Shown: in pieces, positions 32,531 to 63,188 of the stretch
How the letters are laid out: each line of letters starts with the position of its first letter
Numbering within the stretch: the first letter of the stretch is position 1
Assembly: GCA_944325575.1 (NCBI GenBank)
Contig: CALVAR010000009.1
Coordinates: 7,761 to 71,760 of the forward strand
Reading direction: 5' to 3'
From: Candidatus Gastranaerophilales bacterium
GTDB lineage: Bacteria; Cyanobacteriota; Vampirovibrionia; Gastranaerophilales; Gastranaerophilaceae
DNA: 64,000 nucleotides
Notes under the pieces: model-generated
What the model saw: the letters and a program-made list of their open reading frames with translations, nothing else
Database searches by the model: none
Told to the model about the DNA's origin: nothing
Translations under genes and position numbers: made by a program

Positions 32531-32599
32531 TTATGATTGAAGCTAAGATATGTTTTTTATAAACTAAAGAAAATCGAGTTATTTATAGAGGAAGTATTT

Positions 32600-46839: not shown

Positions 46840-47124
46840 TTATTCTTGATATTCAGATAGTGCATCGTTAAATGAAGCTTCATCAACTGCACCGTCATCA
46901 TCCGTATCAAAATCGACTGCGCTGAAGCACATTTTTAGTCTTGTAAGTTCAATACCGGACAATTTTCCGTCATTGTCCACATCAAAACTTTCAAATTTAT
47001 TGTCTTTAACAAGTTGTTTCATTTTTTCAGTCTGTTTATCAGCTGCGTCTGTTTTTGCAGCGCTTGGTGCTGCTGTGTTGATAGAATTAATCGGATCCAT
47101 ATTAGCTCTCCTTATTTTTTGCAT
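46840..47124 (-). CDS. Small EF-hand-type calcium-binding protein
   Basis: Two Ca-loop-like motifs, DVDNDGKLSGIE and DFDTDDDGAVDE (DxDxDG pattern). RBS AGGAG. Confidence 0.55.
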   Translation of the reverse strand: MQKIRRANMDPINSINTAAPSAAKTDAADKQTEKMKQLVKDNKFESFDVDNDGKLSGIELTRLKMCFSAVDFDTDDDGAVDEASFNDALSEYQE

Positions 47125-47595: not shown

Positions 47596-48135
47596 TTATT
47601 CATAATCGAGTTGTTGAATTTTATATTTATCATCGATATTACACCAATTTGTATCATAACAATTGTTTTTGACAAATTTTTTAAAAGAAGAATATAACCA
47701 ATCTTTTGGTGCTATATTGTAATGCTTAAATGAATTGTAATGAATATAATCAATGTGCTTGTTTAAATCTTCTTCATCCCTTATTATATGGTCATAATAT
47801 CTTCTTTGCCAAACGCCTTTCTCACCTCTTTTTAGCGCAGACTCCGACAGATTGTTACAAATATATTTATCAGGAATATTTGTAGAAAAATGATACTTAA
47901 TTGTTCTCATTATTTTAGGAATATCTTCTGCGCACCGTGGCGATATTATCATATGACAGTGGTTTTGTAATACGGTTATTGCAATGATTTGAAATTTGTA
48001 TTTACATTTTGCATGTATAAAACAATTTCTTAAAATATCAATGTTAGGAATCAGGATATTTTTTCTGTTGTAAGTAACAAAAGTTATAAATACGGGATTT
48101 TGTGAATTAATAAAATAACGTCTGTAATTGCTCAT
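47596..48135 (-). CDS. REP-associated tyrosine transposase (RAYT; IS200/IS605 TnpA-like Y1 HUH enzyme), apparently intact
   Basis: 179 aa. HUH motif in TVLQNHCHMII and Tyr motif in IDYIHYNSFKH. It is flanked on both sides by inverted copies of a 25-nt palindromic REP. Confidence 0.85.
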   Translation of the reverse strand: MSNYRRYFINSQNPVFITFVTYNRKNILIPNIDILRNCFIHAKCKYKFQIIAITVLQNHCHMIISPRCAEDIPKIMRTIKYHFSTNIPDKYICNNLSESALKRGEKGVWQRRYYDHIIRDEEDLNKHIDYIHYNSFKHYNIAPKDWLYSSFKKFVKNNCYDTNWCNIDDKYKIQQLDYE

Positions 48136-48165: not shown

Positions 48166-48524
48166 TGCACCCTACATACTGTAAGCTCAATACTTGACAA
48201 GTATGCGATTGTAGTAAATAATGTAAATACAGGGTGGCAGCTTGCCAAGCTAGCCAACAGCCCTTAGAGGTTTGAACGGTTCTTATCTATTTTGATGAGA
48301 GCCGTTTCTTAATATGAATAGAATCAATAACAATAATATTAAAGTTAAATTGATATTTTCCATATCAGCCCCCTTTCTAGCGGGAACCAACCCGAGGTTT
48401 GAATTAAGTTGTGGTTGTTCCGTTTCGAAAGAGCTGTCTTTTAACCCTGCAGGTATATAATACTATAACCCGCCTTGTGTAGTCTATTCTTGCGCCAATG
48501 TGATTTTAGCTGTGTAGCAGTGCA

Positions 48525-48547
48525 GAGTGCAATAAATTGCACCCTAC
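48525..48547. repeat. Third REP (family 2) copy, same orientation as 48141-48165
   Basis: GAGTGCAATAAATTGCACCCTAC followed by the short tandem GGGCTACGGGC. It sits 21 nt from the stop of the last glycan-locus gene. Confidence 0.7.
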
Positions 48548-48568
48548 GGGCTACGGGCAAAGACAAAT

Positions 48569-49486
48569 TTAATAAAATTTAAGAAATTGATACTTCTCTG
48601 AATATATTATCAACTGAGTTTTTGATGCTTCTTGATAAAATTTACCATACTTAATATTATTAGAATCTAGTTTTTCAAATATTAATTTTGCAGTATTTTT
48701 TTCGCCAATTCGTTCTGCGTCGTCAAGTATAATAATAAAATCATTAGCTAAATTTTGCGGAATTAAATCCAGAATATTTGTTCTCGGATAAGTTCTGTTA
48801 AAGCCAAACGGACCATCTATAATAATTAAATCATATTGCACGTTTTCTGTAATTTCCTGTAAGTTGTAATATTTATCATTAGCAGAGTTATTTAAATCAA
48901 ATGATTCTAAGTCTCTTTTAATAATATTTATATTTTCAGCTTCCGGCAGCTCCTCTTTCATTATATTTATCCAATTTTCATCGTGGTCAATAGTTTGAAG
49001 ATTACAATTTGGATTTTTAAATTTTGCATATTGCGCGGTAAGTTTTGTAGTTTGCCCCAATCCAAACTCGAGAATATTCTCTGGTTGTATCTTATCTAAA
49101 ATAATAAGTAAAATATACAAAAATGAATAAGTCGCTGCTCCCTTTGTGGGTATAAACTCTTTATTCTTAATCCAGTCTTTGTTTTGAATCAGATTATTGA
49201 AAATCATTCCTTTAAAGAGTTCTTCATTTTGTTTTTGTATACATTTTAAATATAATTCGATTTTTGTATTAGCTATATTAGAAAAAGTATTGAAATCTTC
49301 TTTCATTGAAGATAGTTTGTCAAATACTGAATTTTCAAGATTCTTGAATTTGTACTCAATAAATGCCTGTTTTTGTTTTTCTTTAATCAGTGTTTTATTT
49401 CTGAGTTTAATTTTTATTCCGCAGATAGTGATTATCTTGTGAATATTTCGATTTTTGACGGAAAAGATTGTTTCTAAAATTTTCAT
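48569..49486 (-). CDS. Class I SAM-dependent methyltransferase-like protein with N-terminal IFSxKN..GIKIK motif
   Basis: ENILEFGLGQTT (motif I-like), DLIIIDGP (post-I/II-like), IIILDDAERIGE. The N-terminus is MKILETIFSVKNRNIHKIITICGIKIKLRNK. Confidence 0.6.
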   Translation of the reverse strand: MKILETIFSVKNRNIHKIITICGIKIKLRNKTLIKEKQKQAFIEYKFKNLENSVFDKLSSMKEDFNTFSNIANTKIELYLKCIQKQNEELFKGMIFNNLIQNKDWIKNKEFIPTKGAATYSFLYILLIILDKIQPENILEFGLGQTTKLTAQYAKFKNPNCNLQTIDHDENWINIMKEELPEAENINIIKRDLESFDLNNSANDKYYNLQEITENVQYDLIIIDGPFGFNRTYPRTNILDLIPQNLANDFIIILDDAERIGEKNTAKLIFEKLDSNNIKYGKFYQEASKTQLIIYSEKYQFLKFY

Positions 49487-49489
49487 TAT

Positions 49490-51697
49490 TTATTCCTTAT
49501 ATTCTAAAATTTCTTTCAGATTTTTTATTGACGTTTGATAAAGGCTGTCCGAATAATTTTTTAAACTATTTTGCATCATATTGTAGTCATTAGCCGGCAT
49601 ATCTATGGCTTTTTTCAACACCTCAGTAAAATCACTATTCTTTTCATAAATTATGCTGTTTTCATCGTTAAATCCGTGTAAGGTCGCAAATTTTTTGTTT
49701 ATTAAACAAGGCTTTGCAAATCCATAAATAAGTTGAAACGAACCAGATGTTCCTGTTGTAATATACCTGTCGTGTTCGGGATTGTCCGGGTCTAGCAAAG
49801 CTAGGAAAAAGTCTGCTTTTTCAAGCTCTTTATACATTTGCTGATAATCTAATCTCCCCTTAAAATCGATAAACGGTCTGATATTCTCCGGAATTGAGTT
49901 CAAGGTACCAGTTCTGGCAATTACTGTTATTTTAAAGTTAGTAATACCTTGTTGTAATAGCTCTCCGACTGAATCTAACAACAAGTTATGATTTTTTCTT
50001 TTATCTTCAATATTGCCAATTACAATAAAATTTGTAATATCATTTTTTCCAGTTATTGCTATATCTCCAAAATAGTGAGAATTTACAACTTTGTATTTAT
50101 CACTGTTCGTTATTGGTAAATTTGCTATTAGTAAATTTCTATAAGAATTATTTCTAAAAGTTCCGGGTCTGTGGTTCATTAAAATCAGTTTATCTTTAAA
50201 TTTTTCCAGCTCTAAATAATTACTTATTGGTATTAATTTTTTAGTTATCGGATCACCGATATATTCTGTATTTATATATATATATTTATATGCTTTAATA
50301 TAATCTGTTTTAAAAAAGTGCCACATTATGTGTGCTGGCATATGATAAACATCTGTTTTTGCATTGTTAAAATTATCAAAAAGTCCCAGCTTATATTCCG
50401 ATTCAGTTATAATGACATCAGTATGGAAACCTAAATCAATAAAATATTTTGCAATTCCGGGCAAAACTTCTCCATGATAATTATTAGGTTCTATAAGTAA
50501 AACAGTATTATCTTTAATGTTTTGATTTATATATTGTTTTAATATTGCTCTTTCTTGCTTTTTAAGAGGTTTTATAAATTTGAATTTTTTGCAACTAATT
50601 GTTAGAATTTTGTAAATGTCTATATTTTCAACAGTAAAAATATTTTTTAATAAATTATTTTTTCTTAGTTTAATCTTTATACCAAAGATTGTTATAATTT
50701 TATGTCGTTTATCATAAGAATTTTTTATTGAAAAAATTTTTTCAATAAAAGACATCGAAGTTTTTTCCGTATTATTTAGAATTCGGCTACAAGAATCCTT
50801 AATACCCGATAATAAAAATTCTTGATTATATCTTTCTTCGTTAAATATCTTTTTTATCTCTTTTTTGTATGTTTTTATAAATTTTTCTCTTCCGATTTGA
50901 TCTAACCTATTATAATTCCAGGTATATTTATCAATCTTTAATGCATTAACAATGAGCATTTTTTCTGGATCTGAAGCATATCTATTTTCTAGTTCATGTA
51001 TTTCATCACACACACAAAATATCTTATTATTGCTTTTCACTGAGGAATTAGTATTATTTGTTCTATAATGATAAAATGCATTCTCTAAATACATAACTTT
51101 TTGGGCAGAAAATATAGTTTTAATTCCAAAACTGGTATCTTGAAAAGATGCTCCCGGAGTTTCTAAAAATCTAATTTTATTTTGTTTTAAAAATTCTATT
51201 TTGTATATTGACGCCCAAATACTCAATGCGCCTCTAAATGTTTTGACATAATTATTAGGATTTATTACTTTTTCATAAATTTCTATTTTGTTAAAAGTTT
51301 CACAAAATTCATTTGTAATATTTGGGGTATCAGAATATCTATAATAATTTCCCTTTATAAAATCTAAATCAAACTCTTTAGCTTTATTATAAAGAGTTTC
51401 ATACATATTAAGCTCAATATAGTCATCTGGTTCAACTATACCTAAATATTCACCTGTAGCACTATCGATACCCGTGTTCATTGAATGACCGTAGCCAGAA
51501 TTAGGCTTATCTATAATTTTTATTCTTGCATCTTTGGACGCATATTCTTTTAAGATTTCAAGTGAATTATCTGTAGAACCGTCATTAACACAAATTATCT
51601 CTATATCTTTCAATGTTTGGTTAACAACGCTATCAAGACATTGCCTGAGATATAGCTCTACATTATATACAGGTATTATTACTGAAACCTTTGGCAT
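49490..51697 (-). CDS. Bifunctional glycosyltransferase: N-terminal GT2 (GT-A) + C-terminal GT-B-like domain
   Basis: MPKVSVIIPVYNVELYLRQCLDSVVNQTLKDIEIICVNDGSTDNS and EPDDY (DxD) for GT2. Two copies of the linker motif lie at aa 316-377. The C-terminal ~350 aa has a Rossmann-like alternating pattern (FIVIGNIEDKRKNH.., TTGTSGS). Confidence 0.8.
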   Translation of the reverse strand: MPKVSVIIPVYNVELYLRQCLDSVVNQTLKDIEIICVNDGSTDNSLEILKEYASKDARIKIIDKPNSGYGHSMNTGIDSATGEYLGIVEPDDYIELNMYETLYNKAKEFDLDFIKGNYYRYSDTPNITNEFCETFNKIEIYEKVINPNNYVKTFRGALSIWASIYKIEFLKQNKIRFLETPGASFQDTSFGIKTIFSAQKVMYLENAFYHYRTNNTNSSVKSNNKIFCVCDEIHELENRYASDPEKMLIVNALKIDKYTWNYNRLDQIGREKFIKTYKKEIKKIFNEERYNQEFLLSGIKDSCSRILNNTEKTSMSFIEKIFSIKNSYDKRHKIITIFGIKIKLRKNNLLKNIFTVENIDIYKILTISCKKFKFIKPLKKQERAILKQYINQNIKDNTVLLIEPNNYHGEVLPGIAKYFIDLGFHTDVIITESEYKLGLFDNFNNAKTDVYHMPAHIMWHFFKTDYIKAYKYIYINTEYIGDPITKKLIPISNYLELEKFKDKLILMNHRPGTFRNNSYRNLLIANLPITNSDKYKVVNSHYFGDIAITGKNDITNFIVIGNIEDKRKNHNLLLDSVGELLQQGITNFKITVIARTGTLNSIPENIRPFIDFKGRLDYQQMYKELEKADFFLALLDPDNPEHDRYITTGTSGSFQLIYGFAKPCLINKKFATLHGFNDENSIIYEKNSDFTEVLKKAIDMPANDYNMMQNSLKNYSDSLYQTSIKNLKEILEYKE

Positions 51698-51722
51698 CGT
51701 TTTTCTCCCTATTACAAACTAT

Positions 51723-53594
51723 TTATTTACTCAAAATTTTTACAGCAACCTGCTCATGCGTATAAACATAACCGATATACTCATATCCTAGCCCCTGAAA
51801 ATTTATAAACTCCTGAAAGGCTTTAAATTCGTGTTCTTGCCAATTGGGATAATTAAAATACTCATCAAAAACAATAATTGTACCAGGAACAATTTTCTCC
51901 TTTAAATTATCAAAAATAGTTTTTGTTGAAGAATATAAGTCACAATCAACATGTATAAAAGCACAATTTTCTGAATTATTTTGATTAAATTCTGGCAGCG
52001 TGTCGTTGAACCAACCTTTAATCAGGGTAACATTTTTATTAACAATAGGAAGTTCAGCAACCTTGAATATTCCTTCTTCAAAACCGCTGCGCCAATCTTC
52101 AGGTAAACCTTCAAAACTATCAAAACCATATACTGTTTTATCGCTTACAATATTTGATATATGGTTAATAGTTTTACCGGAATATACGCCAAATTCTAAA
52201 TATAAGCCGCCAATAGTTACCTGCTTAAGTGCATATGTTAACAAATCTAGATTATTTTTAAAATAATGGACTTTAGGCATATTTTGAATTATATAATTTG
52301 CAGTCTCAATACCCGCAACATCAAATAAATGTTTTCTGATATTCTGTATTGGTTCTTCTGTTACATATTTTTTTAATTGTCTAAGCTCCCAATTATTTAT
52401 GTCCAATTTTTGATTTATGCAATCTAATAGATGTTTTTTTGTTTTGAATTTTATTTTCATTCCTAAACATCTTATTACTTTATGTGCTGATTCATTTTTT
52501 ATAGAAAAAATATTTTGAAGGAATTCTTTTAGCATATTATCTCCTCTTTTTATTTTTATCCTTATCCCCCAAACAGTTATAATTTTGTGTTTTCTATCAA
52601 ACGAATTCTTGAGTGAAAAAATTCGTTCAAACCACTTTTTATACATATATTTTTCAAAAGCAATGGTCTTTAACCATTCATAATGATTTTTATCAAAAAA
52701 ATATTCTTCCGGTTTTTCATATATTTTTAATATAGGAAAGGTTTCGCGCTTTAATCTTTTTATTACAGCTTTGCTTGATTCAGGAGAAATAGTATTTATT
52801 TGCCACCTACAAAAATCTACAATTCTGTTAATAAAGCTTTGTTCGAGAATATTATACAAACCCGCTTTTTCTAAATTTCTTTTTAATGCGTTAGTTGCGT
52901 CTATAAAACAAAATGGAGCTTTATCTCTTGTTCTGGATAACTGATTCTGTCTATGTTGTCTGTGAGTAACAAATATTTTATTTATATAAGATACTCTTTG
53001 GGCAAGAGCTAATGCCATAAAAACAAAAAGCATATCATTTGTGCTGCGTAAGTTTTGAAATTTTAAATTGTTTTTTAACACGAATTCTCTTTTGAATAAT
53101 TTATCCCAACTCCAACCAACAGTAAACTGAAAAACATACAAAGGAAAATCTGAGACAGAAAAAACTTTTTTTGATGGTAACAAATCTTTTTTTATAGACG
53201 TATTATCGTATATTTTTTGTAAACGCATATCAAAATCTTGCGAATCACATATACAAATGTCTAAATTATATTTTTTAGCTTCATTTAGCATATTTTCCAG
53301 CATATCCAATTCAAAAAAATCATCGCTGTCTAAAATTGAGAGATATTCTCCTTGCGCAATTTCCAAACCTTTGTTCCTTGCCGCACCGGCACCTTTATGA
53401 TCTTGCTGCAGTACGGTTATTCTGCTGTCTTTTTTAGCATACTCATTGCAGATAGAAAGGCTGGAATCTGTCGAGCCGTCGTCTACAAGTATTATCTCAA
53501 TATCCTTTAATGTCTGATTAACAACGCTGTTCAGACATTCTCGCAGATATTTTTCGACGTTGTAAACAGGTATAATTACTGAGACTTTAGGCAT
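51723..53594 (-). CDS. GT2 glycosyltransferase fused to a TylF/MycF-like O-methyltransferase
   Basis: MPKVSVIIPVYNVEKYLRECLNSVVNQTLKDIEIILVDDGSTDSS and DSDDF for GT2. Two linker motifs lie at aa 321-385. The C-terminal LEFGVYSGKTINHI, GFDSFEGLPEDW and IHVDCDLYSST match the TylF-type methyltransferase pattern. Confidence 0.8.
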   Translation of the reverse strand: MPKVSVIIPVYNVEKYLRECLNSVVNQTLKDIEIILVDDGSTDSSLSICNEYAKKDSRITVLQQDHKGAGAARNKGLEIAQGEYLSILDSDDFFELDMLENMLNEAKKYNLDICICDSQDFDMRLQKIYDNTSIKKDLLPSKKVFSVSDFPLYVFQFTVGWSWDKLFKREFVLKNNLKFQNLRSTNDMLFVFMALALAQRVSYINKIFVTHRQHRQNQLSRTRDKAPFCFIDATNALKRNLEKAGLYNILEQSFINRIVDFCRWQINTISPESSKAVIKRLKRETFPILKIYEKPEEYFFDKNHYEWLKTIAFEKYMYKKWFERIFSLKNSFDRKHKIITVWGIRIKIKRGDNMLKEFLQNIFSIKNESAHKVIRCLGMKIKFKTKKHLLDCINQKLDINNWELRQLKKYVTEEPIQNIRKHLFDVAGIETANYIIQNMPKVHYFKNNLDLLTYALKQVTIGGLYLEFGVYSGKTINHISNIVSDKTVYGFDSFEGLPEDWRSGFEEGIFKVAELPIVNKNVTLIKGWFNDTLPEFNQNNSENCAFIHVDCDLYSSTKTIFDNLKEKIVPGTIIVFDEYFNYPNWQEHEFKAFQEFINFQGLGYEYIGYVYTHEQVAVKILSK

Positions 53595-54657
53595 TGTTGT
53601 TCCTCTTGTATAAATAGTTATTAAAACAGCGTACAGATTTCTCGTGTCTGTTAAATCGAATACTTATAAACTCTTTCCTGTATATAGATAATTTTTCTAT
53701 TATCAAAGCCAAAAGAGGGAAACATATTAAAAGTTTGAAAAATTTTCGTTCTTCATCTTTTATATATTGATTTGTTTCAACAATATCAGACGACATATTG
53801 TTTATCATTTGCTTTATCAAGCTAAATGCATCTTTTAAATCCTTTATCTTTAACATCCCTAGCACAATATGGATATAGGCAATTTCTCTTTTATACAAAC
53901 ACGCCAATACATTGGCATCCTTTATATCCTGTTGAGTCAGCCATTGGTGAATCTCATTGCTTCTTTTAAACGGGATGTTGTAATCCCTCAGCTGCATTGC
54001 TTCTGTAAAATAAAATTTTCTGTATTTATAAAGTGACTCATCAACATAAACAATTCTATCCGCCAAACACATTGTCTGAACCTGAAAAAGGTTGTCAGTC
54101 CAGCTTGCACCTTTATCTGTTAAAAATTTTATATTATGTTTCTTCAAAAAATCTGATTTATAAATACAGCTCCAGATACTGGGATGAAAATACAAGAACT
54201 CGGGATGCTGATAAATGTTAAAAACACCTTGAGGCAATTCAAATTTTTCATTCCAATTTATTTTTCTGAATTCAGGCGGTTGAAAACATTCCAATACTTC
54301 TTCATATTTGCATTTAGCTATTTCTGCGTTGTTTTCATCAGCTGTTTTTACAAGCTTTTCATACATGTCAGGCTCTATGTAATCATCCGTCTCAACAATG
54401 CCGATGTAGTCACCTGTTGCCGCTTCTATTCCTGCGTTTACGGCTTTCCCATATCCGCCGTTTACCTGATGAATCGGTTTTATTCTCGGATCTTTTGCTG
54501 CATATTCATCCATTATTTTTCCGCAGTTGTCAGGAGAGCCGTCATCAACAGGAATTATTTCAATATCCGTCAGCGTTTGATTGATTACGCTTTCTATGCA
54601 TTGTCGAAAATATTTTTCTACATTATATGTCGGCATTATGATTGAAACTTTAGGCAT
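53587..54657 (-). CDS. GT2-family glycosyltransferase
   Basis: MPKVSIIMPTYNVEKYFRQCIESVINQTLTDIEIIPVDDGSPDNC, ETDDY. I prefer the ATG at 54657, which gives the MPKVS N-terminus shared by all GT2 genes in the locus, over the longer ORF to 54729. Confidence 0.8.
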   Translation of the reverse strand: MPKVSIIMPTYNVEKYFRQCIESVINQTLTDIEIIPVDDGSPDNCGKIMDEYAAKDPRIKPIHQVNGGYGKAVNAGIEAATGDYIGIVETDDYIEPDMYEKLVKTADENNAEIAKCKYEEVLECFQPPEFRKINWNEKFELPQGVFNIYQHPEFLYFHPSIWSCIYKSDFLKKHNIKFLTDKGASWTDNLFQVQTMCLADRIVYVDESLYKYRKFYFTEAMQLRDYNIPFKRSNEIHQWLTQQDIKDANVLACLYKREIAYIHIVLGMLKIKDLKDAFSLIKQMINNMSSDIVETNQYIKDEERKFFKLLICFPLLALIIEKLSIYRKEFISIRFNRHEKSVRCFNNYLYKRNNNA

Positions 54658-54740
54658 GTTGAATAACTCTCTAACTCCCTGTGTGATATAAACATACTTT
54701 TTTATAATAATCGTATGTAAACAATACATGAAAGTTTATA

Positions 54741-54780
54741 ATAAAAAAAGAAATATTTATATCAAATATAAATATTTCTT
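54741..54780 (-). terminator. Rho-independent terminator after ugd (minus strand)
   Basis: AGAAATATTTATAT-CAA-ATATAAATATTTCT gives a 14-bp stem, followed on the minus strand by TTTTTTT. Confidence 0.6.
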
Positions 54781-54815
54781 AAGTAAAATTTTTGATTTTT
54801 ATAAATTTTGAGTAT

Positions 54816-56141
54816 CTAACAGCAGGTCAATGGAGCCAGCTGTTTTTTCCCTATAGAGTAGTATTCAAAGCCTCTTTGCGCCAATCTTTTTGCATCATAC
54901 TGATTTCTGCCGTCAAAGATAACCGGCTCTTTGAGCAGTGATTTAATCCTATCAAAATCAGGACGTCTAAATTCATTCCACTCTGTCAGCAAGAGCATGC
55001 AGTCAGCATCCTCTAATGCTGCATACGCTGATTTTGCATAAGTTATTTTATTGCCAAAAATCATTTCTGCACAGTCAAAGGCTTTGGGGTCGTATGCCTG
55101 AACCTTTGCACCTCTTTCCAAAAGTGCATTGATAATAGTAATAGCAGGTGCCTCTCTCATGTCGTTTGTTTTGGGTTTAAAGGCAAGTCCCCATACGCCG
55201 AAAGTCTTTCCTGAGAGATTTTCGCCGAATCTGTTTAATATTTTTCTGATAAAAATCTGACGCTGTTCTTTGTTTACTTCATCAGCGCTTTGGAGCAGCT
55301 TGTAGTCGCACCCATTGTCTTTTGCTGTTTTTAATAATGCCTTCACGTCTTTAGGGAAGCAGCTTCCGCCGTAGCCCAAACCGGGGAACAAGAACTGCGA
55401 GCCGATTCTCTTGTCAGCACACATTCCGATTCTTACCATTTCTGCGTCTGCCCCGACTTTTTCACATATATTTGCTATTTCGTTTGCATAAGAAATCTTT
55501 ACTGCCAAAAACGAATTAGCTGCATATTTTGTCATTTCTGCAGATTTTACATCCATTATGATAACAGGATTGCCTGTTCTCAAAAACGGTGCGTACAGTT
55601 CCTGCATAATTTCTGTTGCGCGCTGGGAGTTTGAGCCTATTACAACTCTGTCAGGCTTCAAAAAGTCGTCAACGGCTGCGCCTTGTTTTAGGAACTCAGG
55701 ATTTGAAACAACGTCAAACTCTTCATTGGTTTGAGATTTAATTATTTCGGTAACTTTTTCCGCAGTGCCGACAGGAACTGTGGATTTGTCAATGATAACT
55801 TTGTATCCGTTTAATGCCTGCCCTATTGATTTTGCAACGTCATAAACATATTGAAGATCAGCAGAACCGTCTTCGCCCTGGGGTGTACCCACAGCAATAA
55901 AGCATACAAGCGATTTTTGCACCGCCATAGCAAGGTTGTCGGTGAAGGTTAAGCGCCCTTCAGAAACATTTACCTTAATCAGCTCATCCAATCCGGGTTC
56001 GTATATAGGAACAATGCCTTTTTCCAGCTTGGCAAGTTTTTCTGTGTCTTTGTCCACACAAATAACGTCGTTTCCCATCTCAGCAAGGCAAGTACCTGCT
56101 ACCAAACCTACATACCCTGTTCCTATAACACAAATTTTCAT
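54816..56141 (-). CDS. ugd: UDP-glucose 6-dehydrogenase
   Basis: MKICVIGTGYVGLV NAD motif, catalytic GGSCFPKD, and LAFKPKTNDMREAP C-terminal domain block. Confidence 0.93.
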   Translation of the reverse strand: MKICVIGTGYVGLVAGTCLAEMGNDVICVDKDTEKLAKLEKGIVPIYEPGLDELIKVNVSEGRLTFTDNLAMAVQKSLVCFIAVGTPQGEDGSADLQYVYDVAKSIGQALNGYKVIIDKSTVPVGTAEKVTEIIKSQTNEEFDVVSNPEFLKQGAAVDDFLKPDRVVIGSNSQRATEIMQELYAPFLRTGNPVIIMDVKSAEMTKYAANSFLAVKISYANEIANICEKVGADAEMVRIGMCADKRIGSQFLFPGLGYGGSCFPKDVKALLKTAKDNGCDYKLLQSADEVNKEQRQIFIRKILNRFGENLSGKTFGVWGLAFKPKTNDMREAPAITIINALLERGAKVQAYDPKAFDCAEMIFGNKITYAKSAYAALEDADCMLLLTEWNEFRRPDFDRIKSLLKEPVIFDGRNQYDAKRLAQRGFEYYSIGKKQLAPLTCC

Positions 56142-56223
56142 TTATTACTCTCCATAATTGTTATTACTCAAATTTTAGCACAAAACTATTTTTTAATAGT
56201 ATGGTTCAATAAATTACAACATA

Positions 56224-56293
56224 CTATGCAAAATTATTGCGTCATCCTGAGGGTGAAACCCGAAGGATCTAAAGAGAGTAAAGTGCAATAAAT
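56224..56293. repeat. Degenerate scar containing pieces of both repeat families
   Basis: TATGCAAAATTATTGCGTCATCCTGAGGGTGAAACCCGAAGGATC resembles the TIR plus first hairpin of the 470-bp element (TATGTAAAAAATGTCATCCTGAGG...). It is followed by AGTGCAATAAAT, half of REP family 2. Confidence 0.5.
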
Positions 56294-56358
56294 ACAGTAT
56301 ACATGATATTTACAAGCAATAAATACTCAAAAGAAATATTACAGACCGAATTATAAAT

Positions 56359-57285
56359 TTATTTCTTTTTTATAAAAATGTTCCCGCCTAAATTGGGCAT
56401 ATTGTCTTCCACATTGATATAATTTAAGTATGTTCCCCAAAATTCAATACTAAACTTATCGTTATACATTAGAAAAGCTCTTAATAAATAATCTTCATTC
56501 CAAGCTCTATTTTCTTTTATCCATTGTGTTGGATATTCAAAGGGATAAAATATATCGTGAAAATGTACAATTACTCCTTTATTAAGTCTGGGTAGTATTT
56601 CAAAAATAATTTTATTTACATCGCTGTTTAATTTGCTAATATGTGTTGAATCAACTATTAATAGATCATTTTCTTCTAAAGTATCGAACAGTTCTAATGA
56701 AACATCCTGTAGTCTTGTTTTTATAAGCTTTATTTCTTTATCCAAATTATCCCCAAAAGTTTCATATAACCTTGTCGGCCATGGTTCAATAGAAGTAATT
56801 TCTACCGTATTATCCATATAGAGTTTGTTTATATCACTTACAAGACTTGTTGAATATCCCGAACCTATTTCAATAATTCGTTTTGGTTTGTAATGCAGTA
56901 TAAAACAATATAATGAAGTTGCACAACCTCGTGGGTATTGACCATTGTCGCAAAAATATTTAAGATTTTCTGTTTTTGTATCATTCCATATGAAATTTTT
57001 AAAATAATTTTTGAATAAATAATATGTTTGAATTTGTTGTTCAGTATTAAGATTAATAGCGGGTAATGGCCGATTTATATCATATTTTTCAAGATGTTCT
57101 GATATATCCATATCAGATGGAACTGGGGAATAAAAATGTCCTTCTTCAAACATGGCAGGATGATTTTGTGTAAAATTTTGTTTTATTAATGTATCTTGTT
57201 TATATTGATTTTGTAGCTTTTTGTGAATAAAGCAGTAAGGTAATATTTTTGAAACTTCTTTACAAATTTTTTTTAATTTATTCAT
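56359..57285 (-). CDS. Class I SAM-dependent methyltransferase (Methyltransf_24-like)
   Basis: RIIEIGSGYSTSL (motif I), LLIVDSTH, VIVHFHDI. Confidence 0.65.
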   Translation of the reverse strand: MNKLKKICKEVSKILPYCFIHKKLQNQYKQDTLIKQNFTQNHPAMFEEGHFYSPVPSDMDISEHLEKYDINRPLPAINLNTEQQIQTYYLFKNYFKNFIWNDTKTENLKYFCDNGQYPRGCATSLYCFILHYKPKRIIEIGSGYSTSLVSDINKLYMDNTVEITSIEPWPTRLYETFGDNLDKEIKLIKTRLQDVSLELFDTLEENDLLIVDSTHISKLNSDVNKIIFEILPRLNKGVIVHFHDIFYPFEYPTQWIKENRAWNEDYLLRAFLMYNDKFSIEFWGTYLNYINVEDNMPNLGGNIFIKKK

Positions 57286-57297
57286 TTTATACCCTTT

Positions 57298-59427
57298 CTA
57301 TATACATTGCGCAATTAAAACTGTTTCCAGAACAATATTTAAGTCCTTTGGCTTTATTATTTTAAATTTATAACCCAAATTTAAATTATCAATTATCGGT
57401 TTAATGTATTTAAAATCCTGAGAATTATGGTATATACTTATTAATAAGTCAGGTCTTTGCGTTTTAATTGTATTCATTGCACCTCTTATAACGCTTTGTT
57501 CAAATCCTTCTACATCAATTTTTATTAAGCCTACTTGAATATTATTTTGGGCAACATAATTATCAAGTGTATCTGTATGTACGGGATATTCGTCAACGGA
57601 TGTAAAAATTGGTAATATTGAAGAATCAGATTCTCCCAAAGAGACATAAAAAGTTATTTCACTGATTTCATCAGATAATGCGTAATTGTTAGCTTTTATA
57701 TTCTTTAAGTTATTAAGTTCTATAGTTTTTAGTAAGCTTGTGTAATTTTTTTTACTCGGCTCAAATGTATGCACGGTAGAATTTGTTAATGGAGATAATA
57801 CGGGCAAAGAATCCCCAATAAATCCACCAATGTCTATAATATCTAAATTTTCATAATATTGTTTTTTAAATTTATTAATACAATGTTTGTTATAATATAC
57901 AGATGGTTCAAATCTATCTAAAGGTAGTAAATATTGGTCATATGCCCATAGTCCATCTGTTATTTTAATAATTTTAGAATAAAATTTTTCATAGAGTTCA
58001 ATAATTAAATTTTTATATTCTTCATTAATTTGTTTAGGTATATCATTGTTGATTTCGTTTATGTAATTAATTATTTCGTTAACTTGGATTATAGAGTCAT
58101 GGTCTAAACCCTTAATTAGATTCTTGTATTCCTGTTCAGTTATTGTAAAATTTTTGAAATAATGTTTTAAAAAAAAGATTTCTTGTAATTTTAATTTTTC
58201 ATATTCTGTTTTTATAAAGTTATCTATGCGACTTAGTTGTTTTGGCTTATCATTTATTGCATTACTTGTTTTAATATATTCTGTTAATCTTTTATTGCTT
58301 TGTTTTATATCCTTAATCTCATCAATAATAAGTTGAATTTTATTTAGAAGAATTGACATTTTATTCTTTATTTTAATTTTAAAAAATAAAAAGGTTAAAA
58401 CTTTATAATCTTTAATATTTTTTATTGAAAATATGTTTTGTAAAAAAGAATTATATAGTTTATTTTCTATATACGCCTCAAGTTTTTTATATTTTTTTGC
58501 TTTTATTAATTTGAGAATATAGAGATCCGGAGTTTTCAAATCATTTAAATGAATGTTATTTAAAATATTGTTGCACAAATTGTAAGCATATTTTCTTTCT
58601 TCTTTATTATTTAAATGGTGATATGTTGCAACAAACTCCCTATTTAATAATTCTAGAATAAATTTATTTTTATTTACTTCTATATTTTGTTGTTTTAAAA
58701 AATTAAAAACATCTAATACCATTAATATACGGTCATATAAAATTTTATTAATACAATGTTTGCTATAAACATTTGATATTATTGAATCCTCTAAAATTCT
58801 ATAATTATAAAGCATTTCTTGGAATCCAAAATATGTTTTTGAACATAACAAATATTTTATGATAAAAGAGGCGTCTTCACAGCTATATAAATTTTCCGGA
58901 AATCTAATTTTATTATTTTCAATGATATCTTTTTTAAATAGCTTTAACCATAAAGCATAATTTATATTGGAAATTAATGCGGAACTTACTTTTTGTAACC
59001 CAAGTATTTTATTAGAAAAATAATGTTCTGTATCTTTTGTTCTTTGTGTTTCAATATCCGAAATTATATTACAATCGCATGATACCAAGTCTGCATCTGT
59101 TTCTTTTACTGCATCTAGCATTTTTTTACACATATCAGCTTCATACCAGTCGTCGCTGTCACAGAACATAATATATTGTCCGTTGGATTCTTCCAGCGCT
59201 TTATTTCTTGCAACTGCAGGTCCTGAATTTTTTTGTAAAAATATTTTTACTCTTGAATCTTTTTGTGCATATTCATCTAAAATTATATGTGAATTATCTG
59301 TTGAACCATCATTTACACATAATACTTCTATATTTTCATAACTTTGATTTATAAGTGAATCTAAGCATTTTCTTAAATACTTTTCTGAATTATATACAGG
59401 TACAATTATAGAAATCATTTCTGACAT
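57298..59427 (-). CDS. GT2 glycosyltransferase fused to an FkbM-family methyltransferase
   Basis: ISIIVPVYNSEKYLRKCLDSLINQSYENIEVLCVNDGSTDNS and DSDDW for GT2. The linker motif lies at aa 327-356. The C-terminal IIDIGGFIGDS, NNYALSDE and LIKIDVEGFEQSVIRGA are FkbM hallmarks. Confidence 0.8.
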   Translation of the reverse strand: MSEMISIIVPVYNSEKYLRKCLDSLINQSYENIEVLCVNDGSTDNSHIILDEYAQKDSRVKIFLQKNSGPAVARNKALEESNGQYIMFCDSDDWYEADMCKKMLDAVKETDADLVSCDCNIISDIETQRTKDTEHYFSNKILGLQKVSSALISNINYALWLKLFKKDIIENNKIRFPENLYSCEDASFIIKYLLCSKTYFGFQEMLYNYRILEDSIISNVYSKHCINKILYDRILMVLDVFNFLKQQNIEVNKNKFILELLNREFVATYHHLNNKEERKYAYNLCNNILNNIHLNDLKTPDLYILKLIKAKKYKKLEAYIENKLYNSFLQNIFSIKNIKDYKVLTFLFFKIKIKNKMSILLNKIQLIIDEIKDIKQSNKRLTEYIKTSNAINDKPKQLSRIDNFIKTEYEKLKLQEIFFLKHYFKNFTITEQEYKNLIKGLDHDSIIQVNEIINYINEINNDIPKQINEEYKNLIIELYEKFYSKIIKITDGLWAYDQYLLPLDRFEPSVYYNKHCINKFKKQYYENLDIIDIGGFIGDSLPVLSPLTNSTVHTFEPSKKNYTSLLKTIELNNLKNIKANNYALSDEISEITFYVSLGESDSSILPIFTSVDEYPVHTDTLDNYVAQNNIQVGLIKIDVEGFEQSVIRGAMNTIKTQRPDLLISIYHNSQDFKYIKPIIDNLNLGYKFKIIKPKDLNIVLETVLIAQCI

Positions 59428-59433
59428 GATTGC

Positions 59434-61257
59434 TTATTTTTTCCTCCTCAATTTTATTTTTATTCCGAGTATAGTTATGATTTTGTGTGTATTTATGTTT
59501 TTTATAGAGAATATTTTTTCTAAAATAGAATATCCAAAATCTGTCTTGTCCAGATATTTAAAATATTCTTTGCCTACAGAAAGGTCATATTTGCAATTCC
59601 AAGGTTTGCTGGGTGAAGAATAGTGGATGATTACAGGGTTTTTAACTATATCTGCGTATTCTTGTTTAGAAATTGTTTTTAATACAAAATCTTTGTCTTT
59701 CAGAAAAGAAAATTGTAAGTTATATTTTTGAGAAATAAATTTTATTTTATCCTTTAAAGTGTAATTTAATACACATTGATCTACCCAGGTGATTTTATTT
59801 TCATTTTGCAGCTTTATAGTATTTTGGAATAAATTATCAACAATATTATCCTCATTCATTTTTGTAATATTGAATAACATCACACCGGAATTAAAATATT
59901 TATTTACCGCCAATTTTTCTTTAACACCGCAATATTCTACGCATGGTGCCATATCTTCTACTGCTGCTGCATAGTAATTTGTTATATCTGTTTCAAAGAA
60001 ACTTTTTAATGATTTTTTTACAATCACATCACAGTCTAAATATAAAACTTTTTCTAAATGTTTAAATAATTGCGGAATAAGAAATCTGTAATATGCATTT
60101 ATGCTTATATGTTCACAACCATCCGAAATAGGACACATATTAAAATCATTTCTATCAATAGCAATAAATGCTATATTAAAATCTTTTAATTTTTTTAATT
60201 TTGTAAGTTTTTGTTTATAATCCTCATTTATTCCGCTGGTTAAAATATAAAAATTAAACTTTTCTTCTTTATTTGAGTTAATTAGTATAGATGCCATTGT
60301 AGCAGCAAGATGAGGAACATAATTGTTGTCAGAAGAAAAAACTATATTTAATGTGTTTTTATCTGTATTGAAATTTTTCCAGATTTCGCAGGAATTATTA
60401 TTTGCAAATTGCAAATTATATTGTTTTTTCTGATAATCTATTACATCTTTAAAATAATTTGCCCAATGTTCACCGTAATATTTTTTGAAATATATTGCAA
60501 GTTCATCACATTCATTTTCTTTTAACAAATATTGCCATCTATGTGTAAGTAAATTAAAAATATCAAAAATCCTTTTTTTAGATTCACTGTTAATTTTAAC
60601 TGCACCAATATTAGGGAATTGTACATTGTCATTGTATTTTATAAAATTTCCTTGTATTAATTTAGTGCCTTGTAAAACGCTTAAAAGCATATTGTTAGTG
60701 TATTGCATTTTTGACCATTGTTCATCTCTAACAAAAGCATGTAAATTTGTATCATGAAAGACTATTACTGCATCATCTTTTATAAATGGCAAAATCATTA
60801 ATAAATCTAATATTTCCCCCGGATTTGAATGTACAGTATCAATTAGAACAAAATCGATTCCATTTCCAATTTGTTCAATAAACTTGTATGCCATTGCGCC
60901 GGTGAATAGACTCCATTTGTCCTTTAATTCCGGATAATTATCAACATAAAAACCGCTTTGCTTTCCTTTTATTCGATAATGATTTGTATTGTAATCAATA
61001 GAATATAGTTTTGCGCTGCTGTTATTTTTTATGGCATTTAATATAATTATAGAAGACGCGCCGCTGCAAACTCCGAGTTCTAAAATTTTTGTAGGTTGAT
61101 ATCTCAGTAATAATGAATTTAAAAATTCTCTCTCTTCTTTTAACATTTCAGAGAATTGTTCATAACTGTTATCTAAGTTATATAGAACTTGGTTTTCTGT
61201 TTCTATTGGATAAATTAACTCCATATACTTATTTTCACAATTAATTGCAGCTGACAT
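59434..61257 (-). CDS. SAM-methyltransferase (N-terminal) fused to a GT8-family glycosyltransferase, ending in the IFSIKN..GIKIK motif
   Basis: ILELGVCSGASS and VLIDTVHSNPG for the methyltransferase. LNIVFSSDNNYVPHLAATMASIL, YLDCDVIV (DxD) and YFNSGVMLFN for GT8. The C-terminal 31 aa are SILEKIFSIKNINTHKIITILGIKIKLRRKK. Confidence 0.8.
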   Translation of the reverse strand: MSAAINCENKYMELIYPIETENQVLYNLDNSYEQFSEMLKEEREFLNSLLLRYQPTKILELGVCSGASSIIILNAIKNNSSAKLYSIDYNTNHYRIKGKQSGFYVDNYPELKDKWSLFTGAMAYKFIEQIGNGIDFVLIDTVHSNPGEILDLLMILPFIKDDAVIVFHDTNLHAFVRDEQWSKMQYTNNMLLSVLQGTKLIQGNFIKYNDNVQFPNIGAVKINSESKKRIFDIFNLLTHRWQYLLKENECDELAIYFKKYYGEHWANYFKDVIDYQKKQYNLQFANNNSCEIWKNFNTDKNTLNIVFSSDNNYVPHLAATMASILINSNKEEKFNFYILTSGINEDYKQKLTKLKKLKDFNIAFIAIDRNDFNMCPISDGCEHISINAYYRFLIPQLFKHLEKVLYLDCDVIVKKSLKSFFETDITNYYAAAVEDMAPCVEYCGVKEKLAVNKYFNSGVMLFNITKMNEDNIVDNLFQNTIKLQNENKITWVDQCVLNYTLKDKIKFISQKYNLQFSFLKDKDFVLKTISKQEYADIVKNPVIIHYSSPSKPWNCKYDLSVGKEYFKYLDKTDFGYSILEKIFSIKNINTHKIITILGIKIKLRRKK

Positions 61258-62314
61258 CTTTATTTGTAAACCTTTCTCTCAACAATTTAGTCCATCTTTT
61301 TACTCTAAATTTTTTACCGAACAGAATAAAAGTTTTGTCTGTATCTGTGGTGCGAATATCAAACATATCAAAGAAGGTTTTGTGCTCATATTTAAAAAGC
61401 AGGTGTTTTAGCTTTTGGTAATTAGACATTTTTAATAATTCCAATAGCTCAAATTGTCCTTTTACAAACACCAAAAATTCTTCTATATCCCTTTTGTATT
61501 TCTTCCTTTGCTCTTCATCCTCTGCATAACGCCAATAGTGTATAGAACCTCCGAGGATATGATTTGTTGTAGCTGTTTTTAGTCTTTGTGAGATATTCTT
61601 ATACTTATCTGTTGTACAAAGATATCTGTAAGCTGTTAAATCATTTTGTATGCAATTGTCATGGTTTGTTGCCGCATCTTTCCTGTACTGTGTATAAAAA
61701 TACAGACCCTCTGGTATAAAAGAATAATCTGGTTTTGCATAATATGACAAAAGGCAGAATATTATATCTTCCGCATTTTTTATTCCTTCAGGGAATCTTA
61801 TATTATTCTTAATTAAAAAATCTTTTTTAAAAGCTTTGTCCCAAATGAAAATCTGTAAAGCAAGCCAATTTTTTAAATTAATCTTTAAATTGCGCTCAAG
61901 TCTGTTTAATAAATAAACATATTCATCCGTTTTAACAATTTTTCCGTCAGAAAGAGAATTGTGCCCCCACATTACAATATCGGGATGCTCTGTGTTGATT
62001 TTTTCAACAACCTTTTCACACAGAGTCAAATCATACGTGTCATCAGGATCAATAAACATGATGTATTCGCCTTCTGACGCATTTATGCCCGCATTTCTTG
62101 CAGCGGAAACGCCTTGATTTTGTTGGTCAATTATTTTAATTCTGTTATCTTTTTGTGCATAATCCTTTAAAATTTGCAAAGAATTGTCCGTTGACCCGTC
62201 ATTTATGCAAATAATTTCAATATCAGAAAATGTTTGATTAATAACACTTTCCATAGCAGCCGGAAGATAGTCCTGTACATTATATGTCGGCATTATTATT
62301 GATATCTTAGGCAT
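61241..62314 (-). CDS. GT2-family glycosyltransferase
   Basis: MPKISIIMPTYNVQDYLPAAMESVINQTFSDIEIICINDGSTDNS, DPDDT. The start at 62314 is preferred by analogy with the other GT2 genes; it overlaps the XRE gene stop by 8 nt. Confidence 0.8.
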   Translation of the reverse strand: MPKISIIMPTYNVQDYLPAAMESVINQTFSDIEIICINDGSTDNSLQILKDYAQKDNRIKIIDQQNQGVSAARNAGINASEGEYIMFIDPDDTYDLTLCEKVVEKINTEHPDIVMWGHNSLSDGKIVKTDEYVYLLNRLERNLKINLKNWLALQIFIWDKAFKKDFLIKNNIRFPEGIKNAEDIIFCLLSYYAKPDYSFIPEGLYFYTQYRKDAATNHDNCIQNDLTAYRYLCTTDKYKNISQRLKTATTNHILGGSIHYWRYAEDEEQRKKYKRDIEEFLVFVKGQFELLELLKMSNYQKLKHLLFKYEHKTFFDMFDIRTTDTDKTFILFGKKFRVKRWTKLLRERFTNKDVSCN

Positions 62315-62657
62315 GTTGGTCGGCTCTCCTCTTAGACAAAATTTCAAGCATTTTAAGGCTTGTCAAAACATCCTCAGAACTCATATTCTTTAATAATTCC
62401 AAAATTTTAGCTTCATTTTCGCTGGTTGTATGCTCCGATATCATCAATACATCCGAGAGATCAAATTTGAGTACTTCAGATAGTTTCAGATAGGTAATAA
62501 ACTTTGGCATATATGTGCCGTCTTCGAGTTTGCCTATATGCCGTGTGCTAAGACCTGTTTTTTGTGCAAGCTGCTCTTGTGTCATATTCAGTGCTTTTCT
62601 CTGCTTTTTTATCAAAAAAGATAATGCCTCAGCCGCAGATTTTTCGTCTATCACCAA
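62307..62657 (-). CDS. XRE-family HTH transcriptional regulator, first gene of the glycan operon
   Basis: LIKKQRKALNMTQEQLAQKTGLSTRHIGKLEDG is a classic HTH_3 motif. TTG/GTG start. The stop overlaps the first GT2 gene. Confidence 0.75.
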   Translation of the reverse strand: MVIDEKSAAEALSFLIKKQRKALNMTQEQLAQKTGLSTRHIGKLEDGTYMPKFITYLKLSEVLKFDLSDVLMISEHTTSENEAKILELLKNMSSEDVLTSLKMLEILSKRRADQHA

Positions 62658-62825: not shown

Positions 62826-62846
62826 AAAAATCATTAAGGGTTTTTG

Positions 62847-63188
62847 ATGAATAAAAAAGATGTCGGAAGGAAAATCAAAGAGTTTAGAAATCTGCAGGGG
62901 TTGACGCAGGCAGAGCTGGCAGAAGCCGTGCATATGCATGAAAAACAAATTTCCCGTATAGAGGCGGGTGTCCATTTCCCCACATTTGATAATTTTATGA
63001 AGATTTTGACTGTACTCAATGTAGAAATGAAAGACTTTGATATGTCTCAAAAGGTAGAAAAAAATTCTTTAAGAAAAAAGACCCTAAAGATTATTCAAAG
63101 AGCCAATAACAAAGAATTAAAATTTTATGCATCCGTACTGGAAGCGATGCAAAAATGCCTGGACGAAACAGAAGAAACTGTCAAATAA
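62847..63188 (+). CDS. XRE-family HTH transcriptional regulator (divergent paralogue)
   Basis: IKEFRNLQGLTQAELAEAVHMHEKQISRIEAG is an HTH_3 motif. The post-HTH segment (P.F..F.K.L..L) matches that of the divergent neighbour. Confidence 0.75.
   Translation: MNKKDVGRKIKEFRNLQGLTQAELAEAVHMHEKQISRIEAGVHFPTFDNFMKILTVLNVEMKDFDMSQKVEKNSLRKKTLKIIQRANNKELKFYASVLEAMQKCLDETEETVK

Follow-up and report, generated by a model that had tools for sequence, protein, structure and literature searches.

Tags that localise enzymes or dock them to one another from a protein terminus form a known class. The docking domains of polyketide synthases (PKS) and non-ribosomal peptide synthetases (NRPS) are complementary N/C pairs of short terminal elements, and polybasic-hydrophobic sequences are found in the MARCKS effector domain and in cationic amphipathic beta-hairpin peptides, which are eukaryotic or secreted. 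In bacteria, TagA has a conserved C-terminal appendage that tethers the enzyme to the membrane and whose removal releases it, and terminal membrane-targeting helices are present in TagB, MinD, FtsA and penicillin-binding proteins (PBPs) (PMC6493773). In TarS, a helical bundle (residues 217–319) is followed by a linker (residues 320–352) of a helix and two antiparallel strands, which leads into a trimerisation domain (PMC5156392). Here we describe a motif of about 32 residues that recurs in a glycan-tailoring gene cluster within a 64,000-nucleotide stretch of a Candidatus Gastranaerophilales genome (the window, throughout), and which is an independent, widespread mini-domain on glycan-assembly enzymes, without a match in Pfam-A, NCBIfam or the Protein Data Bank (PDB). 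The motif would be a further member of this known class of terminal localisation or docking tags, and its biochemical function we infer: it is plausible, if tentative, that the motif acts as a portable tag by which soluble enzymes of glycan tailoring are kept at the cytoplasmic membrane, the site of the lipid-linked acceptor.

Comparison with known systems

Like the appendages of TagA, TagB, MinD, FtsA and the PBPs, the motif is a short, conserved, hydrophobic-plus-basic terminal element carried by enzymes of soluble fold that would act on a lipid-linked acceptor. The TagA-type appendages, however, are amphipathic alpha-helices confined to one family each, whereas the motif is predicted to form a helix followed by a three-stranded sheet, and is present in more than 15 families at either terminus; with only residues 2–8 predicted as helical and residues 9–32 as three strands, it does not qualify as an amphipathic helix of the MinD, FtsA or TagA type.

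In position and structure there is also a parallel with TarS. The glycosyltransferase family 2 (GT2) modules of the window resemble TarS, TarP, RmlT and CgT in Foldseek searches (E values of 1e-15 to 1e-21 for TarS, TarP and RmlT), with TarS residues 1–349 matched at E 9e-19. As in TarS, the helical bundle of the window model (residues 229–311) is followed by the motif (residues 319–351) at the position of the linker and with the same order of secondary structure elements. Sequence homology to the TarS linker was not detected: the phmmer alignment extends only to about residue 260, and no TarS, TarP or RmlT chain was matched by a profile that covered the motif together with the helical bundle. 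Unlike TarS, in which a trimerisation domain of 220 residues follows, the window protein either ends after the motif or continues into another enzyme, and the motif is also found on enzymes that are not GT2s.

The parallel with PKS/NRPS docking domains lies in short terminal elements that stand at the C-terminus of one enzyme and the N-terminus of the next, and that are kept at fused junctions; the N- and C-terminal copies of the motif nevertheless belong to a single sequence family and do not form complementary pairs. With the MARCKS effector domain and the beta-hairpin peptides the motif shares positive charge interleaved with Phe, Ile and Leu, and its I-K-I-K strand would likewise have one cationic and one hydrophobic face, but it has a fold signature of its own (F-S-x-K-N...H-K...G) and homology is unlikely.

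Copies of the motif in the window

The motif copies of the window are all on the minus strand and in frame (Table 1), the canonical ones having the consensus xFLxxIFSIKN..HKIITILGIKIKxKRK. An initial annotation, made from the sequence alone, had quoted eight copies; the quoted strings are real and lie where they were reported, but they are not eight equal copies, the tally being six canonical and three diverged, one of which (53602–53679) had been missed. A hidden Markov model (HMM) of seven copies, applied to the entire window translated in all six frames, scored its own copies at 48–58 bits, with the next match anywhere in the window at 12.7 bits, and a broader HMM built from 442 instances, all from other sequences, scored the six canonical copies at 38–52.5 bits. 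As first described, each copy stands either at a terminus or between domains, and this is true of every copy when the open reading frames (ORFs) and their Pfam matches are considered.

The diverged copy in the 735-aa protein has the sequence NIFTVEN..YKILTISCKKFKFIKP, in which T replaces S, E replaces K and C replaces the conserved G. The diverged copy in the 368-aa GT2 matches the canonical motifs of its full-length homologues P0216, L035, L014 and L038 column for column, and belongs to a diverged but conserved subtype (FFxxFDIRTT..DK.Y.V.GKK..VKR) with the same variant in the close relatives L071, L048 and L063. The ninth, degenerate copy, on the 380-aa GT2, is the positional homologue of a second subtype (KKLFSIRxN....V.LFGKQI) that aligns with the canonical motif, and therefore all of the GT-A modules of the cluster end in some version of the motif tail. 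Only the UDP-glucose dehydrogenase and the 308-aa methyltransferase genes of the cluster are without any form of the motif. There are two copies at the junction of the 623-aa protein, and one copy only at the same junction in its GT2–TylF homologues P0268 (46% identical) and P0307 (41%).

Table 1. The glycan-tailoring cluster of the window, its open reading frames and the motif copies they contain. Residue numbers (aa) are those of the protein named.
Feature	Coordinates	Strand	Pfam content, score or remark
Nine-gene low-GC glycan-tailoring cluster	48569..62347	-	all genes co-directional
368-aa ORF	61241-62347	-	GT2
Diverged motif copy, aa 323-352, near C-terminus of 368-aa GT2	61292..61381	-	only 1.3 bits (442-instance HMM)
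607-aa ORF	59434-61257	-	Methyltransf_24 + GT8; GT8 match stops at aa 554
Motif copy, aa 576-607, extreme C-terminus of 607-aa protein	59437..59532	-	52.2 bits
709-aa ORF	57298-59427	-	GT2 + FkbM
Single motif copy, aa 325-357, between GT2 and FkbM of 709-aa protein	58357..58455	-	38.1 bits
308-aa ORF	56359-57285	-	Methyltransf_24
441-aa ORF	54816-56141	-	UDP-glucose dehydrogenase
380-aa ORF	53587-54729	-	GT2
Ninth, degenerate motif copy, aa 351-376, C-terminus of 380-aa GT2 (RKEFISIRFNRHEKSVRCFNNYLYKR)	53602..53679	-	below 442-instance HMM detection
623-aa ORF	51723-53594	-	GT2 + TylF
Motif copy, aa 318-351, behind GT2 module of 623-aa protein	52542..52643	-	45.3 bits
Second tandem motif copy, aa 356-387, ahead of TylF module of 623-aa protein	52434..52529	-	48.3 bits
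735-aa ORF	49490-51697	-	GT2 + weak GT1-like (GT-B-like module)
Motif copy, aa 314-347, right behind GT2 module of 735-aa protein	50657..50758	-	52.5 bits (442-instance HMM)
Second, diverged tandem motif copy, aa 348-377, ahead of GT-B-like module of 735-aa protein	50567..50656	-	17.9 bits
305-aa ORF	48569-49486	-	methyltransferase-like
Motif copy, aa 1-32, extreme N-terminus of 305-aa protein	49391..49486	-	49.7 bits (442-instance HMM)

Conservation, charge and predicted fold

A sequence logo of the 442 instances (KSFLEKIFSIKNSNKKHKIITILGIKIKFKRK) has I7 at 86%, F8 at 99%, S9 at 98%, N12 at 95%, H17 at 71% (plus Y at 14%), K18 at 98%, T21 at 76%, G24 at 97%, K26 at 84% and K28 at 88%, figures that are somewhat inflated by the choice of instances with an HMM. 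The motif has a median net charge of +8. For the last strand the hydrophobic moment is 0.93 when calculated at 180 degrees (strand geometry) and 0.30 at 100 degrees, and in helical geometry the basic segment has a low moment (0.24–0.30).

An AlphaFold2 model was calculated for the tandem motif of the 623-aa protein from a 104-row alignment, nearly all rows of which cover copy 1. Copy 1 (52542..52643) is modelled with pLDDT values of 79–91 as a helix at residues 2–8 and strands at residues 9–13 (FSLKN), 19–24 (HKIITV) and 27–32 (IRIKIK), the last two being joined by a W-G turn. The motif is thus predicted to be a short, amphipathic helix followed by a three-stranded antiparallel beta-meander, which contains the beta-hairpin suggested at the outset. 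From the alternation of residues, one face of the modelled sheet would be hydrophobic (I/V22, 24, 27, 29 and 31, plus F9) and the opposite face cationic, with a lining of lysines. The tandem model (pTM 0.49) has no confident packing of one copy against the other, and copy 2 appears as a long helix that is unreliable through the thin depth of its alignment. A Foldseek search of PDB folds with the mini-model of the motif returned nothing below E=1.

Independence from described families and from the GT2 fold

The motif could be taken for the last part of the GT2 fold, but this is ruled out by its distribution and by structure prediction. Of 120 GT2 homologues of the 623-aa protein, 18 have the canonical motif and 102 do not; in the AlphaFold2 model, pLDDT values are 85–98 for the GT2 module with its helical bundle, to about residue 310, and fall to 37–55 over the motif region; and the motif is also found on GT8 enzymes, at the N-termini of methyltransferases and on radical SAM proteins. 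Even within single ORF families its occurrence is patchy (e.g. 59 of 110 members in one and 15 of 28 in another).

Nor does the motif correspond to a described family. Scans of eight cluster proteins against Pfam-A (2025) and NCBIfam 20.0 gave catalytic-domain matches only, all ending ahead of the motif, and the precomputed Pfam lists of motif-bearing matches add no motif family, the matches of 36–120 aa being without a Pfam entry. No PDB sequence was matched by a motif profile at E<=10, a full-text literature search for motif strings found nothing relevant (one unrelated vaccine paper), and a tblastn search of plasmids with the motif consensus found none. The initial annotation knew of no named domain, and no Pfam-A, NCBIfam or PDB entry covers the motif. 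We note that PF27807.1 is listed in the precomputed annotation of two triple-GT2 proteins (P0252 and P0345), and for no canonical motif carrier.

Partner enzymes and position of the motif

The motif is attached to more than 15 unrelated enzyme families. Pfam matches in 95 carriers are to GT2 (46), GT8 (18), RgpF (6), DUF4422, FkbM and radical SAM (4 each), GT1/GT4, Methyltransf_24 and Methyltransf_23 (3 each), and GT29, TOD1 and TagF-like (2 each), and GT-D, GT32, Caps_synth and DUF1796 partners were also seen. Copies at the C-terminus are found on GT2 and GT8, and those at the N-terminus on FkbM, TylF, class I methyltransferases, radical SAM, MptE-like, TagF-like and GT29 enzymes; TupA-like ATP-grasp modules likewise stand behind the motif. 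The nucleotide-sugar families that were checked in the same loci contain no copy, namely the 4,6-dehydratase/epimerase (29 ORFs), DegT (11), UDP-glucose dehydrogenase (7), sugar nucleotidyltransferase (6), cytidylyltransferase (6) and FdtA families. Transmembrane-like segments are present in 2 of 97 and 4 of 141 carriers, versus 43 of 346 other ORFs.

Positions were classified for 130 of the best 150 proteins and, as a second sample, for the complete ORFs of the loci. The motif is at the extreme C-terminus in 50 proteins of the first sample and 65 of the second, and at the extreme N-terminus in 22 and 29, respectively. A single internal copy is found in 5 and 37, two internal copies in 23 (often directly tandem) and 5, an internal plus a C-terminal copy in 23 and 1, an N-terminal plus an internal copy in 6 and 0, and four copies in tandem in 1 (P0121) and 0.

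The N-terminal, C-terminal and internal copies share the same per-position consensus, and a classifier separates them with an AUC (area under the curve) of only 0.67, compared to 0.48 with permuted labels, so that a division into complementary N- and C-types is ruled out. Two copies from one locus are no more alike (0.515) than copies from different genomes (0.504), the observed value being reached by 139 of 2000 permutations, and this rules out their co-evolution within loci. No universal partner or scaffold gene was found near the motif in the related loci, in which the non-enzyme genes met most often next to it encode XRE-type HTH regulators (in 14 loci) and, in 8 loci, an MsbA-like ABC transporter.

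The motif as a seam between modules

The 735-aa protein illustrates how the motif relates to module boundaries. Its GT2–motif unit (aa 1–346) is followed by a second motif and a GT-B-like domain, and units of this type are joined to four different partner domains across related genomes: a 700-aa protein (L004, 76% identical to the window unit) has the order GT2–motif–motif–TupA ATP-grasp, a 636-aa protein (L009, 78%) GT2–motif–radical SAM, and a 635-aa protein (L003, 50%) GT2–motif–methyltransferase. The homology of L009 and L004 to the window unit stops at or just past the copy at 50657..50758. The other half of the L003 fusion is also represented in the window, the 305-aa motif–methyltransferase protein being 63% identical to its aa 326–635. 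Both L003 and L016 additionally have unfused neighbors, a GT–motif gene followed by a motif–methyltransferase gene with overlapping stop and start codons, and this arrangement explains the tandem copies of the fusions.

This pattern extends to other carriers. Among motif proteins of at least 450 aa, compared in (interdependent) pairs that share one module at >=45% identity and then diverge, homology ends within 20 residues of the motif end in 67 of 100 cases (median -1), compared to 21 of 100 for random positions, and it starts within 20 residues of the motif start in 25 of 49 cases. These breakpoints, together with the shared units, identify the modules as [GT-A–motif] and [motif–tailoring enzyme]. 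Plain fusion of adjacent genes is sufficient to explain the breakpoint pattern.

At the DNA level the copies of the window are 59–75% identical, and only about half of their identical residues use the same codon, showing that conservation acts on the peptide. There is no DNA repeat above 75% identity between them, which rules out recent duplication or gene conversion of the motif DNA and leaves recent homologous recombination at the motif in the window unsupported. The domain-shuffling seam proposed initially is therefore upheld as a description, with breakpoints at the motif edges and one GT2–motif unit having different partners, and not as a site of recent homologous recombination. Shufflon-like recombination sites are largely ruled out by the same identity range, by the direct orientation of all window copies and by the lack of a recombinase gene inside the cluster. 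A Phage_integrase-family (tyrosine-recombinase) protein of about 180 aa is encoded in nine related glycan loci (L030 and eight others), and none in the window; it might control inversion or phase variation of those loci.

Distribution

When 1.84 billion representative proteins were searched with a profile of 35 positions, 1150 protein clusters were matched at E<=1e-3, mostly from gut metagenome-assembled genomes (MAGs) of Gastranaerophilales and other phyla, and 54 at E<=1e-10. A pattern scan based on a four-sequence alignment and covering one genome per species gave 79 loci, mostly from gut MAGs of Candidatus Gastranaerophilales, Vampirovibrio or Melainabacteria, with others in gut Alphaproteobacteria, Mailhella, Fusobacterium, Bacteroidaceae, Bacilli, Clostridia, Gammaproteobacteria and Thermodesulfobacteriota. 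These loci bear out the statement in the initial annotation that similar strings occur in other AT-rich host-associated bacteria. Together with a metagenome copy of the window's own cluster (L001) they make a set of 80 loci, with 162 copies in 1.12 Mb; 44 of the 80 have at least two copies, and the maximum is six within 11 kb. The nearest relatives of the window among the motif loci are Gastranaerophilales, and the window itself was seen in metagenome assemblies only.

The motif also occurs outside enzymes. A profile of two concatenated units returned only short proteins, and there are free-standing ORFs of 37 aa consisting of the motif alone (positions 3001–3114 in L082–L084 and in L085, and 1784–1897 in L086). 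One free-standing form (P0098) is conserved in 10 contigs or more, flanked on one side by a pyruvyl-transferase/TPP-enzyme gene and on the other by the gene for an MsbA-like ABC transporter, and another (P0061) overlaps the stop codon of a GT2–GT1 gene and the start codon of an RgpF gene, the three lying in different frames and being translationally coupled. The short ORFs P0106 (from a Mailhella MAG), P0111 (70 contigs) and P0114 open with a motif-like sequence (MKKILETIFSVKN…) that runs into an (IY)n stretch of a length that varies among the variants, and may be a truncated gene beside a variable TA-rich repeat. In P0026, a predicted protein of 118 aa, the canonical motif is in frame with what a precomputed label (PF02547) suggests to be the C-terminal part of QueA. 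No other context seen is clearly unrelated to glycans, and this one may result from an error of gene calling or be the scar of a recombination event.

Possible functions of the motif

From the independence, distribution, predicted fold, charge and breakpoint position of the motif we infer that it may target the membrane or the acceptor. Localisation at the cytoplasmic membrane is the best supported of the explanations considered here, since the motif is restricted to enzymes of the acceptor, is charged and amphipathic, is retained in covalent fusions and appears to have a common target. Its carriers seldom have transmembrane-like segments, and TagA offers a precedent (PMC6493773). A common target follows from several observations: the same consensus in N-terminal, C-terminal and internal copies, the lack of any special likeness within loci, the absence of a universal partner gene and the occurrence in several phyla suggest one target that is independent of phylum. 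Retention is telling in that the motif is fully conserved inside covalent fusions, where linking of the partners is no longer needed. Such a tag would keep otherwise soluble enzymes (glycosyltransferases, methyltransferases, and radical-SAM, ATP-grasp and TagF-like enzymes) at the cytoplasmic membrane face where they act on the growing lipid-linked glycan, held by electrostatic and hydrophobic contact with an anionic membrane or acceptor surface. Every cassette would bring a tag of its own, C-terminal on GT-A enzymes and N-terminal on tailoring enzymes, and as neighboring genes fuse the tags, single or tandem, would land exactly at the junctions; with each cassette carrying its own copy, the motif would be the visible seam of module shuffling. 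Several points weigh against localisation at the membrane. The near-invariant polar residues (S9 98%, N12 95%, K18 98% and G24 97%) are sharper than a generic membrane anchor would need, although part of this is selection bias from the HMM-chosen instances, and the diverged subtypes retain the fold residues while losing much of the polybasic third strand. The bacterial membrane-targeting tags known to us are amphipathic helices and not beta-sheets. Tandem and four-fold arrays and free-standing 37-aa ORFs suit a role in protein–protein contact at least equally well, and the closest solved GT2 relatives (TarS, TarP, RmlT and CgT) are multi-subunit assemblies, the C-terminal domain of TarS being the part that trimerises it (PMC5156392).

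These last points lead to the main rival, homotypic docking, in which the sheets of different enzymes would pair through their hydrophobic faces to build a multi-enzyme complex, with the fused tandems as its covalent version. We consider this unlikely but worth serious attention, as the sequence is conserved to an unusual degree, the sheet is predicted with its hydrophobic face exposed, copies accumulate within loci (two or more in 44 of 80, up to six in 11 kb), unfused GT–motif and motif–methyltransferase pairs (L003 and L016) exist beside fused tandem versions, and there are both a four-fold array (P0121) and free-standing ORFs (P0098 and P0061); the helix and two-strand linker of TarS, which trimerises through its C-terminal domain, also stands at the same post-bundle position. 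Unless neutralised, however, a charge of about +8 per copy disfavors self-association, there are no complementary types among the N- and C-terminal copies, copies of one locus do not covary, the motif is kept in single-copy fusions and single-copy loci, and the tandem AlphaFold2 model lacks confident packing, although its second copy is thinly aligned and modelled as a helix. Recognition of a specific ligand, either an acceptor that bears phosphate (for example, intermediates linked to undecaprenyl-(pyro)phosphate) or a nascent anionic polymer of teichoic- or teichuronic-like type, instead of the bulk membrane, would account for the conserved polar residues S9, N12, H17, K18 and T21, and is in keeping with the TagF-like, cytidylyltransferase, UDP-glucose dehydrogenase, pyruvyl-transferase and TupA-like enzymes of related loci, which suggest anionic polymers, and with the basic grooves of the TarS C-terminal domains, proposed to bind poly-ribitol-phosphate (PMC5156392); we nevertheless think it improbable, as no binding pocket can be inferred in a unit of 32 residues and the substrates of the partner families are very different. 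That the motif has no function in the protein, being a shufflon-like DNA recombination site, a remnant left when genes fused or just the final part of the GT2 fold, is suggested by its presence at every junction, by the coincident homology breakpoints and by the small tyrosine-recombinase family in nine related loci. This explanation is already largely refuted and we give it very little credence: F8, S9 and K18 are conserved at 98–99% across phyla, the DNA copies are 59–75% identical, their codons have turned over synonymously and they are not part of any longer repeat of high identity, the window copies are all in direct orientation in a cluster without a recombinase, and the motif occurs on non-GT2 folds and at N-termini. 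A broader and rather doubtful reading is that the motif is the universal assembly tag of modular glycan assembly lines, a single sheet-forming unit by which any cassette could plug into a membrane-bound multi-enzyme complex and which, standing at the start or end of every cassette, would offer an in-frame seam for combinatorial swapping between gut-bacterial genomes; it would then be a functional analogue, for surface-glycan diversification, of PKS docking domains or of cohesin–dockerin. The initial annotation had offered a membrane-interface anchor, a docking element and a shuffling seam side by side, and as a whole its interpretation is partly supported.

The glycan-tailoring cluster and its setting

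The nine genes of the cluster encode seven glycosyltransferase domains, five methyltransferase domains and one UDP-glucose dehydrogenase, as assigned by Pfam. The cluster is without an initiating phosphoglycosyltransferase, flippase, polymerase or ABC exporter. The window is chromosomal and contains gyrB and hisD, and the presence of genes for the Kdo transferase WaaA (32537–33874) and a TolC-like protein (22792–24162) shows that the host has two membranes; the product of the cluster may be a heavily O-methylated glycan linked to lipopolysaccharide (LPS). The GC content of the cluster region (48500–62400) is 24–30%, compared to 32–38% across the remaining window, and fits a horizontally acquired island. 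An IS200-like Y1 transposase gene (47596–48135, minus strand) is located past the downstream (tail) end.

The listed genes overlap by 17 nt (61241–61257) and 8 nt (53587–53594), with the remaining junctions 3–25 nt apart, and this close spacing suggests translational coupling along the cluster; at both overlaps the downstream ORF probably starts further in, at an internal ATG. Two divergent XRE-type HTH genes (62307–62657, minus strand, and 62844–63188, plus strand) are located at the cluster head. In 14 of the 79 related genome loci a close homologue of about 115 aa (…LSTRHIGKLEDGTYMPK…) adjoins the motif-rich glycan genes, and its recurrence there suggests a dedicated regulator. To the other side of the transposase gene a 94-aa ORF (46840–47124, minus strand) has two calcium-binding repeats of the DxDxDG type, EF-hand or dockerin-like (DVDNDGKLSGIE… DFDTDDDGAVDE).

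Implications

The surface glycans of uncultured gut bacteria, and especially of the Melainabacteria (Gastranaerophilales), are host-facing chemistry that has so far been uncharacterised. The motif is a sharp marker that flags enzymes acting on the lipid-linked glycan and, at the same time, the limits of their modules; it merits a family entry in the domain databases, and would better the annotation of more than 1000 clusters that are now labelled just 'glycosyltransferase' or 'hypothetical'. Should it indeed serve different phyla as a membrane or assembly tag, it would provide a compact, transferable handle with which to localise or co-assemble engineered glycosylation enzymes. That homology breaks off where the motif stands provides a concrete and testable picture of how glycan loci diversify by the exchange of cassettes.

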